Both the position numbers and the translations under genes were made by a program. The notes below the pieces were generated by a model. That model was not told the DNA's origin and did no database searches. It saw only the letters and a program-made list of their open reading frames with translations. Below, piece after piece: positions 6,106 to 23,303 of a stretch of DNA of 39,270 nucleotides. The DNA is taken from sequence record NC_015249.1; one strand, 5' to 3'. Positions within the stretch are counted from its first letter, which is position 1. Each line of letters opens with the position of its first letter. The stretch comes from Escherichia phage 285P.

Positions 6106-6149
6106 AGTTAAACTCAAGGTCATCTACATGGTGGCCTTCATGATTAACT
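6106..6149 (+). promoter_or_regulatory. conserved RNase III-type hairpin element, copy 1 (R1.1-like)
   Basis: Seen: AGTTAAACT-CAAGGTCATC-loop-GGTGGCCTT-CATGATTAACT; inner 9-bp stem, outer AGTTAA/TTAACT stem; near-identical copies at 6623 and 13599. Confidence 0.55.
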
Positions 6150-6179
6150 GTCATTAACTACACAGAAGGAAATAACATT

Positions 6180-20367: not shown

Positions 20368-20423
20368 GACAATACGTCCTCCCTTTGAGTTCAACTTTAT
20401 GAAATCTAAAGGAGATAACAATT

Positions 20424-21335
20424 ATGGCTGGTGAATCTAACGCTGACGTATACGCATCTTTTGGTGTGAACTCTGCGGTTGTCGGTGGGTCTACTCCTAC
20501 TGACCACGAACAGGCTATGCTTGAACTCGACGTTGCTGCCCGTGATGGTGATGACGCAATCGAGTTAGTAAGTAACGATGACCCGTATGGTAATCCAGAC
20601 CCGTTCGGTGAAGAAGACGAAGACCGCACTGAGATTCGTATCTCCACTGATGGTGAACCTGAAGTAACCGAAGAAGGTGAAATCGACTATGAAGGAACCG
20701 AAGATGAAGGCTCCGAAGAGTTTGAACCAGTTGGTGACGTTCCAGATGAACTGAACGAAGCCTCAAGTCAACTCGAAGAGCACGAAGCTGGTTTCGAAGA
20801 GATGGTCAATCAGGCTGCTGAACGTGGTCTGTCTGAAGAAACCATCGTGCGTATCCAACAGGAATACGGAGAGGACGGTCTGTCTGAAGAGTCTTACGAA
20901 GAGTTAGCCAAAGCTGGTTACTCCAAGTCGTTTGTTGACTCCTACATCCGTGGTCAGGAAGCACTGGTAGAACAGTATGTTCAGTCCGTTATGGAGTACG
21001 CTGGCGGTGAAGCACAGTTCCAAGCAATCTACAATCACCTCGAAGTGTCCAACCCGGATGCTGCCGAGTCTCTGATTAGTGCCTTGGAGAATCGTGACCT
21101 CGCAACAGTTAAGGCTATCGTTAATCTCGCTGGTGCAAGCCGTGCGAAGACTTTCGGTAAACCTGCTGCCCGTAGTATCTCTAAACGTGCCGTCCCTGCT
21201 GCACCTGTACGCACCAAACAGTCTGGCTTTGAGTCACAGGCTGAGATGATTGCTGCAATGTCCGACCCTCGCTATCGTCACGACAGTAAGTTCCGTGCGG
21301 AAGTTGAGCGCAAGATGATGTACAGTCAGTTCTAA
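20424..21335 (+). CDS. 9: capsid assembly scaffolding protein
   Basis: 303 aa, highly acidic, between portal and major capsid genes. Confidence 0.9.
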   Translation: MAGESNADVYASFGVNSAVVGGSTPTDHEQAMLELDVAARDGDDAIELVSNDDPYGNPDPFGEEDEDRTEIRISTDGEPEVTEEGEIDYEGTEDEGSEEFEPVGDVPDELNEASSQLEEHEAGFEEMVNQAAERGLSEETIVRIQQEYGEDGLSEESYEELAKAGYSKSFVDSYIRGQEALVEQYVQSVMEYAGGEAQFQAIYNHLEVSNPDAAESLISALENRDLATVKAIVNLAGASRAKTFGKPAARSISKRAVPAAPVRTKQSGFESQAEMIAAMSDPRYRHDSKFRAEVERKMMYSQF

Positions 21336-21338
21336 AAT

Positions 21339-21361
21339 TAATACGACTCACTATTGGGAGA
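21339..21361 (+). promoter_or_regulatory. T7-type promoter (phi10-like) TAATACGACTCACTATTGGGAGA
   Basis: Seen: only the -1 A to T difference from T7 consensus; 5' hairpin GGGAGAGACATTACGTTCTCCC follows. Confidence 0.85.
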
Positions 21362-21463
21362 GACATTACGTTCTCCCACTTTGAGTGATACACAATGAGA
21401 ACCAACTCGTTTCAAGTAGTACCTCACACATTTAAACTTTAAATTAACAGAAGGAGATTCAAC

Positions 21464-22507
21464 ATGGCTAAGATGAATGGTGGTCAGCAAATTGGTAAAG
21501 ACCAAGGTAAAGGTATGTCTGCTGGTGATAAACTGGCTCTGTTCCTGAAAGTGTTCGGTGGTGAAGTTCTGACCGCGTTTACTCGTACCTCTGTTACCAT
21601 GAACAAACACCTCGTGCGTTCCATTCAGTCCGGTAAGTCCGCGCAGTTCCCTGTGCTGGGTCGTACCAAAGCTGCTTACCTGCAACCGGGTGAGAACCTC
21701 GATGACAAACGTAAAGACATGAAGCACACTGAGCGTACCATTAACATTGATGGTCTGCTGACTGCTGACGTTCTGATTTACGACATCGAAGACGCAATGA
21801 ACCACTATGACGTGCGCTCCGAGTATACCGCACAGTTGGGTGAATCTCTTGCGATGGCTGCTGATGGCGCGGTTCTGGCTGAAATGGCTAAACTGTGTAA
21901 CCTGCCGTCTGCGTCTGATGAGAACATCGCTGGTCTCGGTAAGGCTCATGTACTGGAAGTTGGCAAGCAGTCTGAGCTTCGGGGAGACCAAGTTAAGCTG
22001 GGTCAGGCTATTATCGCACAGTTAACTCTGGCTCGTGCCAAGCTGACTGGCAACTATGTTCCGTCTGCTGACCGTGTGTTCTACACCACTCCAGACAACT
22101 ACTCTGCTATTCTGGCTGCTCTGATGCCTAACGCTGCAAACTATCAGGCTCTGATTGACCCGTCTACTGGCTCTATCCGCAACGTTATGGGCTTCGAAGT
22201 TATTGAGGTTCCGCATCTGACTGCTGGTGGTGCTGGCGAAGACCGTCCAGAAGAGGGTGCAAATCCGACTGGTCAGAAACATGCGTTCCCTGAGACTTCC
22301 TCTGGTGACACCCGTGTTGCTCTGGACAACGTTGTCGGTCTGTTCAATCACCGCTCTGCCGTTGGTACTGTTAAGCTGAAAGATATGGCACTGGAACGTG
22401 CTCGTCGAGCTAACTTCCAAGCAGACCAGATTATCGCTAAGTACGCTATGGGTCACGGTGGTCTGCGCCCTGAAGCATGTGGTGCGCTGGTTTTCAACAA
22501 GGCTTAA
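21464..22507 (+). CDS. 10A: major capsid protein 10A
   Basis: 347 aa; N-terminus MAKMNGGQQIGKDQGKG parallels the T7 gp10 N-terminus; extensive identity. Confidence 0.97.
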   Translation: MAKMNGGQQIGKDQGKGMSAGDKLALFLKVFGGEVLTAFTRTSVTMNKHLVRSIQSGKSAQFPVLGRTKAAYLQPGENLDDKRKDMKHTERTINIDGLLTADVLIYDIEDAMNHYDVRSEYTAQLGESLAMAADGAVLAEMAKLCNLPSASDENIAGLGKAHVLEVGKQSELRGDQVKLGQAIIAQLTLARAKLTGNYVPSADRVFYTTPDNYSAILAALMPNAANYQALIDPSTGSIRNVMGFEVIEVPHLTAGGAGEDRPEEGANPTGQKHAFPETSSGDTRVALDNVVGLFNHRSAVGTVKLKDMALERARRANFQADQIIAKYAMGHGGLRPEACGALVFNKA

Positions 22508-22651: not shown

Positions 22652-22696
22652 AAACCCCTTGGGTGCCTTCACGGGTGCTTGAGGGGTTTTTTCGCT
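22652..22696 (+). terminator. T-phi-like terminator for phage RNAP (AACCCCTTGGG...GAGGGGTTTTTTCG)
   Basis: Seen: GC stem followed by T6; same position (after gene 10) and near-identical ends to T7 T-phi. Confidence 0.8.
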
Positions 22697-22712: not shown

Positions 22713-23303
22713 ATGCGTTCCTATGAAACAACCCTAGAGACAGGTGAAGAGTTGGCTGCTGTCAATGACATCTTGGCCTCTATCGGTGAACCACCAGTAT
22801 CTACTCTGGAGGGTGACTCTAACGCCGATGTTGCCAACGCCCGTCGAGTTCTCAATAAGATTAACCGACAGATTCAGTCTAAGGGCTGGACGTTCAACAT
22901 TGAGGAAGGTCAACAGTTGGTCCCCGATGTGTTCAACGGATTGATTCCCTATATGTCTGACTACCTGTCCGTACTGTCTGAAGGAGGCGCGACCGCTTAC
23001 GTTAACCGTGGTGGTTACGTCTATGACCGGACTACAGGAACCGATGTGTTCCAGAACCCTATCACTGTGACCATCATTAAACTGAGAGAGTTCTACGAGA
23101 TGCCTGAATGCTTCCGCTTCTGGATTGTAACTAAAGCTGCCCGTCAGTTTAACAACAGGTTCTTCGGTGCACCTGAGATTGACGCTGTGTTGGCTGAAGA
23201 AGAACAGGAAGCGAAGATGCAGTGTCACGAGTATGAACTGGACTTCGGTAACTTCAACATGCTTGATGGTGATGCCTTCACTGGTGGTCTGCTGTCTCGT
23301 TAA
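22713..23303 (+). CDS. 11: tail tubular protein A
   Basis: 196 aa (T7 gp11 is 196); position. Confidence 0.9.

Follow-up and report, generated by a model that had tools for sequence, protein, structure and literature searches.

A conserved, covarying hairpin in the capsid gene leader of T7-like phages and its apparently incidental upstream ORF

Why does the major capsid gene of a T7-like phage begin behind a leader of 108 nt, and does the short ORF within that leader matter for expression of the most abundant late protein? The question arises from an initial annotation of the phage genome analyzed here (39,270 nt, referred to as "the window"). That annotation described the gene 10 leader as unusually long relative to the ~63 nt of the T7 leader, and listed within it a 5' hairpin, an ATG-initiated 15-codon upstream ORF (uORF) and an AT-rich, enhancer-like ribosome-binding site (RBS). 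Each of these parts is where the annotation placed it, but most of the interpretation does not hold: the length is normal for relatives of this phage, and the uORF looks accidental. The phage is T7-like and belongs to the genus Berlinvirus; positions 21250-21560, which include the leader, are 97-98% identical to Escherichia phage CarlSpitteler. The features of the leader and its surroundings are as follows.

21339-21361, + strand: phi10-type phage RNA polymerase promoter, from -17 to +6; the 23-mer TAATACGACTCACTATTGGGAGA, with the +1 G at 21356
21356-21377, + strand: 5'-terminal transcript hairpin, GGGAGAG/UUCUCCC with an 8-nt loop; predicted at -8.9 kcal/mol
21382-21426, + strand: element B, a conserved 45-nt irregular stem-loop recognized by covariation, covariance model and conservation
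21395-21442, + strand: 15-codon uORF encoding the peptide MRTNSFQVVPHTFKL; ATG at 21395, within the apical stem of element B, and TAA at 21440-21442
21427-21450, + strand: A/U-rich unstructured spacer, unpaired in the minimum free energy (MFE) structure; holds the epsilon-like TAAACTTTA at 21433-21441
21451-21466, + strand: gene 10 RBS, consisting of the Shine-Dalgarno sequence (SD) AAGGAG at 21451-21456, the 7-nt spacer ATTCAAC and the ATG
21464-22507, + strand: gene 10A ORF, major capsid protein, 347 aa

The start of the transcript is well defined. Gene 9, encoding the scaffold, ends at 21335, and the promoter core, TAATACGACTCACTATT, occupies 21339-21355, such that the transcript begins with the G at 21356. 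A 23-mer promoter pattern matches the window at 11 places with up to three mismatches, all of them on the + strand, where no match is expected by chance. The only zero-mismatch match to the promoter's own 23-mer in the window is 21339-21361 itself. The homologous site is labelled phi10 in the Yepe2, Kvp1, FE44 and ETEP21B records. With the gene 10 ATG at 21464, the leader spans 21356-21463, which confirms the length of 108 nt given in the initial annotation, and the predicted 5' hairpin that the annotation listed sits at the very start of the transcript. No G+C-rich hairpin followed by a U run, as in an intrinsic or class I T7 RNA polymerase terminator, was found in 21300-21470, and ARAGORN found no tRNA-like gene.

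The gene downstream of the leader is a typical gene 10. The first 120 aa of gene 10A are 79-89% identical to the gp10 N-termini of T7, T3, K11, Vi06, fPS-59 and L057. Near the 3' end of the gene, a T7-type slippery heptamer, GGTTTTC, is present at 22489-22495, and a -1 frame ORF extends to 22641, past the end of 10A at 22507. This 10A/10B frameshift arrangement is conserved, with 10B annotated in Kvp1 and FE44. Just after 10B, at 22653-22695, there is a Tphi-like terminator hairpin, CCCCTTGGGTGCCTTCACGGGTGCTTGAGGGG, followed by TTTTTT; the Tphi-like site was scored at 22666-22685.

Is 108 nt a long leader for a phage of this type? We assembled 86 distinct gene 10 upstream regions from annotated phage records, IMG/VR and metagenomes, and the promoter could be placed in 79 of them. 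Sampling of relatives by capsid similarity covered the 80 closest, down to ~83% capsid identity, and a scan of metagenomes gave at least eight T7-like loci, one of which is a new variant (L331). The length given for the T7 leader in the initial annotation proved correct: it is 63 nt, with +1 at 22904 and the ATG at 22967 of the T7 genome. Leaders that carry element B are 103-218 nt long (72 distinct sequences), and those that lack it are 58-171 nt long (7 distinct sequences, with the T7 group at 63-68 nt). For example, Berlinvirus leaders are 103-113 nt, the T3 leader is 141 nt, and the K11 leader is 210 nt. Thus, the description "unusually long" is true only by comparison with T7. The window leader is at the short end of its own group, and it is T7 that is the outlier. 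The extra leader length in PP74, JSS2, T3 and K11 consists of insertions within the 5'-terminal hairpin, and its closing stem, GGGAG...CUCCC, is retained despite these insertions.

What of the uORF? The reading frame exists as described, and its ATG is the only one in the leader. However, such a frame is easily obtained by chance: shuffling the leader yields an ATG in 84% of cases and an ATG-initiated ORF of at least 15 codons in 44%. The uORF also has no accessible, usable RBS, since the SD duplex is weak and the AUG is paired. The best anti-SD duplex upstream of the uORF is -2.2 kcal/mol versus -8.8 kcal/mol for gene 10, and the stem bases that overlap the uORF AUG (21396-21398) are unpaired with a probability of ~0.02 in the ensemble versus 0.75 for the gene 10 AUG.

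Comparison with relatives shows no conserved length, frame, stop or peptide. In CarlSpitteler, the nearest relative, a 1-nt deletion in the A/T-rich spacer changes the uORF from 15 codons to 26. Across 78 distinct leaders, the frame ranges from 1 to more than 40 codons and encodes 30 different peptide strings; its stop falls anywhere from -81 to +30 relative to the gene 10 ATG, in all three frames, and in a few leaders the uORF continues in frame into gene 10. Of these leaders, 68 have ATG at the start position and 8, those of the T3 group, have TTG; L057 has ATT there, and Vi06 has TCT. The uORF of AP10-like phages is reduced to ATG-TGA. Hence, among relatives whose leaders are as long, the uORF is missing or unconserved, which is the outcome that the initial annotation had itself named as counting against the idea.

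Only the first ~10 codons of the frame are conserved (M[RS][TI][NT]SFQVVP), and they are conserved because they spell the hairpin of element B. Indeed, the uORF AUG is bases 2-4 of the apical 5' arm of that hairpin (AAUGAG). Where the start codon has been lost, in Vi06 and L057, the loss is always accompanied by compensating changes on the paired strand, so selection appears to act on the pairing and not on the codon. The 15-codon uORF looks like an incidental reading frame. The same frame, extended upstream into the promoter, has been annotated as a hypothetical protein in some GenBank records, K30 ("gene 9.4") and phi1_066008 among them; the annotated frames include L010 at 394-522 (K30, AEH41047.1) and L011 at 344-448 (XCO36554.1). 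Such calls are probably spurious, and element B would explain why they turn up sporadically between genes 9 and 10.

Element B thus becomes the part of the leader that calls for explanation. Its components in the window are as follows.

21382-21393 with 21416-21426, + strand: lower stem of ~9 pairs, with a bulged A
21394-21399, + strand: apical 5' arm, AAUGAG
21400-21405, + strand: loop, AACCAA; UAUCAC or UACCAA in relatives
21406-21411, + strand: apical 3' arm, CUCGUU, completing a 6-bp apical stem
21412-21415, + strand: 4-nt 3' bulge, UCAA; UUAA or UAAA in relatives

Two alignments were used to assess whether the two sides of B change together: A3, made with MAFFT from 19 distinct cores, and A4, fitted to the model from 21 cores. 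In A3, 90.2% of cells pair, versus 22-50% when the partners are slid. In A4, 92.1% of cells pair and the same nine pairs show double changes; the range for slid partners over both alignments is 22-57%. Double, compensatory changes are found in 9 of the 15 pairs of B, and not one of 500 shuffles of A3 reached any of the observed covariation measures. MAFFT misplaced a "GA" insertion in Berlin and the indels of L115 and L331, making the A3 counts conservative; the model-fitted A4 alignment leans towards structure.

The apical stem is 100% paired in every sequence, despite extensive change on both sides. The variants are the following.

AAUGAG/CUCGUU in Berlin and Przondo leaders
AUUGAG/CUCGAU in T3
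AAUUAG/CUAGUU in L057
AUCUAG/CUAGAU in Vi06
AAUGUG/CACGUU in AP10

One-sided changes in the apical stem that keep pairing are also found: U.G has become U-A in L075, and C-G has become U.G in CHRF_10027. The lower stem follows the same rule. GAG/CUC is replaced by GGU/ACC in T3 and Vi06, the stem is a perfect AGUUAC/GUAACU in K11 and L057, and in the AP10 group it is wholly different (GUAUUUCGU/GUGAAGUAC) yet still complementary. L331 has matched insertions on both strands of the lower stem. On the other strand, the U.G wobbles would turn into C.A mismatches, which places the fold on the sense RNA.

Conservation of B stands out from that of its surroundings. B has a normalized edit distance of 0.14, compared with 0.49 in the 5' hairpin segment and 0.41 in the spacer, so its divergence is 3-4 times lower than that of the leader segments on either side. 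Of the 10 invariant columns, 6 are unpaired loop or bulge positions (A23, C25 and A26; U34, A36 and A37 of A3). Only ~5-6 independent lineages, all fairly closely related, supply the compensatory changes, and the invariance of the unpaired bases could partly reflect shallow divergence. Element B is an RNA structure of the sense transcript that is under purifying selection and occurs once per genome, always between the phi10 start and the gene 10 RBS. It has the compensatory base pairs and the fixed genomic context that are used in Rfam-style definitions of an RNA family.

B alone is thermodynamically unremarkable (-8.5 kcal/mol; z = -1.18 versus shuffles), and whole-leader folding is no better than that of shuffled leaders (z = -0.40). 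The RNAalifold consensus recovers only the apical stem of B. Among the single-sequence MFE folds of 72 leaders, 64 contain the apical stem and 59 the lower stem.

How widespread is element B? A 50-nt BLAST query matched 601 of 50,697 phage records, in one place each and usually with no annotated feature beneath. The block is nearly identical in Berlinvirus, Helsettvirus (fPS-59), Przondovirus (K11, K30 and KP32-like phages) and Teetrevirus (T3 and SM9-3Y), and B is also found in Teseptimavirus phages of the Vi06 group, Yersinia phage AP10 and uncultured relatives. The covariance model did not find B in T7-type, PP81-like or SRT7-like leaders, or in three other leader types. BLAST found no similarity to B in any of 5,426 complete E. 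coli genomes, so at the level that BLAST can see, B does not mimic a host sequence. With the covariance model, the copy in the window reaches 68 bits, and neither the window nor the Yepe2 genome has a second one. The runner-up, at 17.6 bits (E = 0.08), is a weak match at 20383-20411 on the - strand, at the gene 8/9 junction near promoter phi9, which we judged to be a chance match. A degenerate-pattern scan of IMG/VR gave further matches in L025, L042/L086 and L052; these fall within coding regions (ORFs) of phages unrelated to this one and were rejected as chance, and the apparently flipped stem of L025 was accordingly left out.

Element B appears to be an undescribed conserved hairpin; it is well supported, and it is of a kind that is already known, namely a cis-acting 5' UTR structure. 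Rfam 15 gave no match at gathering score in the whole window, and only chance-level matches (E of at least 1.2) in 21250-21560. The curated T3, K11, Yepe2 and Kvp1 records have no annotated feature between the promoter and gene 10. The searchable literature, which did not extend to the older T3 gene 10 papers or the T3/phiYeO3-12 genome papers, contained no description of B, of an RNase III site or of a uORF in T3- or T7-like gene 10 leaders.

Leaders that lack B have features of their own. The T7 leader has UCUAGAA right after its 5' hairpin, which is identical to the 5' arm and first loop bases of the Vi06 B (AUCUAGAACC). This could be a deletion scar, although a 7-mer match is not significant. 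Two T7-like lineages without B, L118 and L166, have a different, G+C-rich hairpin at the equivalent place (GGUCC-ACGAAC-GGACC and GGCCC-ACGUUAC-GGGCU), followed by AACUCAA(A)CUUAA. In addition, the long Przondovirus leaders contain a second conserved module, AGCTTGGCAACGATAGGCCCGTTTGGTCAGCGTAATGACTAA, between B and the RBS: it is found at 1900-1950 in L018 (K11), in L010 (K30) and in L012 (Kp_Pokalde_002), and also in L167, which lacks B. The module is absent from the window.

The remaining parts of the leader differ greatly in how far they are conserved. Of 72 related leaders, 60 fold with their 5' end in a hairpin that precedes B, and the interior of that hairpin is hypervariable, at 24-97 nt. 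The window and 59-64 of 72 relatives are predicted to have a layout of two hairpins, one at the 5' end and a second upstream of the RBS. The A/U-rich spacer is highly variable in both sequence and length among relatives (17-113 nt). Within the spacer, the AT-rich, enhancer-like stretch proposed in the initial annotation is present: TAAACTTTA agrees at 8 of 9 positions with UUAACUUUA, the epsilon enhancer of the T7 gene 10 leader. However, this epsilon-like motif (UAAACUUUA), located 9 nt from the SD, is not kept in close relatives. The SD-to-ATG block of gene 10, by contrast with the spacer, has only 4 variants among 72 leaders. Its RBS is annotated as such in ETEP21B and Kp_Pokalde_002, and is open in the predicted fold. 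The exact 17-mer RBS, AGGAGATTCAACATGGC, is also found before ~40 unrelated ORFs with "MA..." starts in unrelated viral contigs from IMG/VR (L180-L221), which suggests a recurrent strong RBS design and not homology.

What is the function of this leader, and of B within it? We lean towards the view that it is an ordinary modular gene 10 leader, made of a 5' hairpin, B, an A/U-rich spacer and a strong SD, in which the uORF is incidental and B acts in cis. Specifically, B would act in cis on the capsid mRNA as a recognition hairpin for a trans-acting RNA-binding protein of the host or the phage, and a protein bound at B would tune the stability or translation of the most abundant late mRNA. The stems covary around loop and bulge bases that do not change, and the hairpin has only marginal stability, making recognition the most likely of the roles that we considered; we put forward a protein-recognition hairpin that may tune capsid mRNA stability or translation as a tentative proposal, somewhat less likely than not. 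The role would be modulatory and not essential, given that T7 and several other lineages lack B; indeed, T7 grows well without it. A more specific version, in which B is an operator-like hairpin for one particular host or phage protein, possibly an autogenous late product, that sets the translation rate or the lifetime of the capsid mRNA, seems to us unlikely. Pairing of the B loop with a distant site was also considered, and no covarying long-range partner was found for complements of AACCAAC (window and T3) or UAUCACC (K11).

Several other explanations need to be weighed against a recognition hairpin. B may be a passive structural module of a stabilizing 5' UTR like that of ompA, with no specific partner, in which two hairpins keep the A/U-rich RBS from mispairing and shield the leader from RNase E. 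The prediction of the two-hairpin layout in nearly all relatives, the openness of the RBS and the dispensability of B in T7-type phages are all consistent with a passive module, but this leaves unexplained why invariant loop and bulge bases sit beside covarying stems and why B is far more conserved than the equally structural 5' hairpin, and B is only weakly stable. We regard a passive role as possible, though on the unlikely side. A processing role, with B as an endoribonuclease site ("R10", for RNase III or another enzyme) that splits gene 9 read-through from the gene 10 message or trims the leader, would fit the position of several T7 RNase III sites in leaders just downstream of phage promoters, as well as the general form of B, which has a lower stem, an asymmetric 3' bulge and an upper stem. 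Nevertheless, B lacks both the ACUCAAGG...CCUUUAUGAU consensus and a long upper stem (it has 6 bp and is A/U-rich), the covariance model of B sees no similarity to the RNase III-type sites of the window, and the curated records of T3, K11, Yepe2 and Kvp1 mark nothing between the promoter and gene 10, all of which makes a processing site improbable.

Could the uORF be functional after all, with initiation at the AUG at 21395 opening the leader or feeding the gene 10 RBS, or with the peptide itself being active? Some use of translation is compatible with retention of ATG or TTG in 76 of 78 distinct leaders, and the geometry would allow coupling in certain phages: the ORF of the most frequent Przondovirus leader stops 8 nt inside gene 10, and that of T3 stops at a UAA that overlaps the SD. 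T3 also has an SD-like AGGUGA 4 nt upstream of the ORF. The frame is also annotated as a protein in some records. Against this, the AUG is paired and its SD weak; the ATG is lost with stem compensation in Vi06 (TCT) and L057 (ATT) and is followed at once by TGA in AP10-like phages; there are 30 different peptide strings, with stops scattered over all frames and some fusions to gene 10; a 1-nt indel between phages that are 98% identical rewrites the C-terminus; and shuffling often gives ORFs as long. We consider a functional uORF quite improbable, more so than a processing site. Least probable of all is conservation at the DNA level, for example as an inverted repeat to which a protein binds, as a secondary origin of replication or as a recombination block. 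Symmetrical change is also possible in inverted repeats that dimers bind, and in T7, secondary origins occur together with phage promoters that have AT-rich DNA downstream. However, the conserved U.G and G.U pairs would be mismatched in a DNA palindrome, as they would on the antisense strand, an asymmetric 4-nt bulge and a bulged A are conserved, and the flanking leader DNA is hypervariable.

What are the implications of B for the phages that carry it? The long leader and its uORF are ordinary, and there is little case for a regulatory story built on the uORF. The interest of the locus lies instead in the sharply conserved, covarying 45-nt hairpin. It belongs to the 5' UTR of the gene that ~600 sequenced T7-like phages express most strongly, among them T3, K11, the therapeutic Klebsiella phages of Przondovirus and the Berlinvirus groups of Yersinia and E. 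coli, whereas T7, Rfam and the genome annotations examined all lack it. B offers a testable handle on post-transcriptional control of capsid synthesis, and it is relevant both to the use of T3 or K11 gene 10 leaders in expression systems and to the engineering of such phages. If the operator reading were true, there would be a layer of post-transcriptional control over the capsid protein in T3-, K11- and Berlin-type phages, one that would have gone unnoticed because the model phage, T7, has lost B.

How does this leader compare with better-known systems? One of these is the T7 gene 10 leader, g10-L, used in pET vectors. The window leader has the same class of promoter, a 5'-terminal hairpin of the GGGAGA...UCUCCC type and an AAGGAG SD at the same distance of 7-8 nt from the ATG, and its A/U-rich stretch matches epsilon at 8 of 9 positions. 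It does not share the length of ~63 nt: g10-L is 63 nt and has no B, whereas here, a 45-nt conserved hairpin and a spacer are intercalated to give 108 nt. In addition, the T7 epsilon is immediately upstream of the SD; the epsilon-like motif of the window lies 9 nt from it and is not conserved among close relatives. Work from the Belasco laboratory reportedly established that the ompA 5' UTR stabilizer consists of a 5'-terminal hairpin, hp1, and a second hairpin, hp2, before the RBS. The layout predicted here is the same, with a 5' hairpin, a single-stranded segment, a second hairpin and an A/U-rich segment with the RBS, but the two leaders have no sequence relationship, and the loop and bulge bases of B are invariant, which suggests specific recognition.

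The RNase III hairpins of T7 have the same irregular form as B, in which a lower and an upper stem are separated by bases left unpaired asymmetrically on the 3' side, and they too are found in leaders downstream of phage promoters. Ten T7 RNase III sites all share ACUCAAGG...CCUUUAU^GAU and an upper stem of 9-10 bp that is G+C-rich; the cleavage positions of R0.3, R1.1, R1.3, R6.5 and the others all fall in this motif. Two hairpins in the window, at ~799-860 and ~6116-6175, carry the T7 RNase III consensus (ACUCAAGG...CCUUUAUGAU / CCUUCAUGAU) where R0.3-like and R1.3-like sites are expected. B differs from these hairpins in both sequence and architecture, since it is without the consensus and its apical stem is A/U-rich and 6 bp long instead of G+C-rich and 9-10 bp long. 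A further comparison is with translational operators of phages, such as that of MS2. The MS2 coat-protein operator has a bulged A, a conserved loop and an AUG in the hairpin. B likewise is a small hairpin with a bulged A, invariant loop positions, a covarying stem and an embedded AUG, and it precedes a heavily expressed late gene. B has no sequence similarity to such operators, however, and the AUG embedded in B is not the start of the regulated gene; instead, B sits 38-130 nt upstream of the gene 10 SD.
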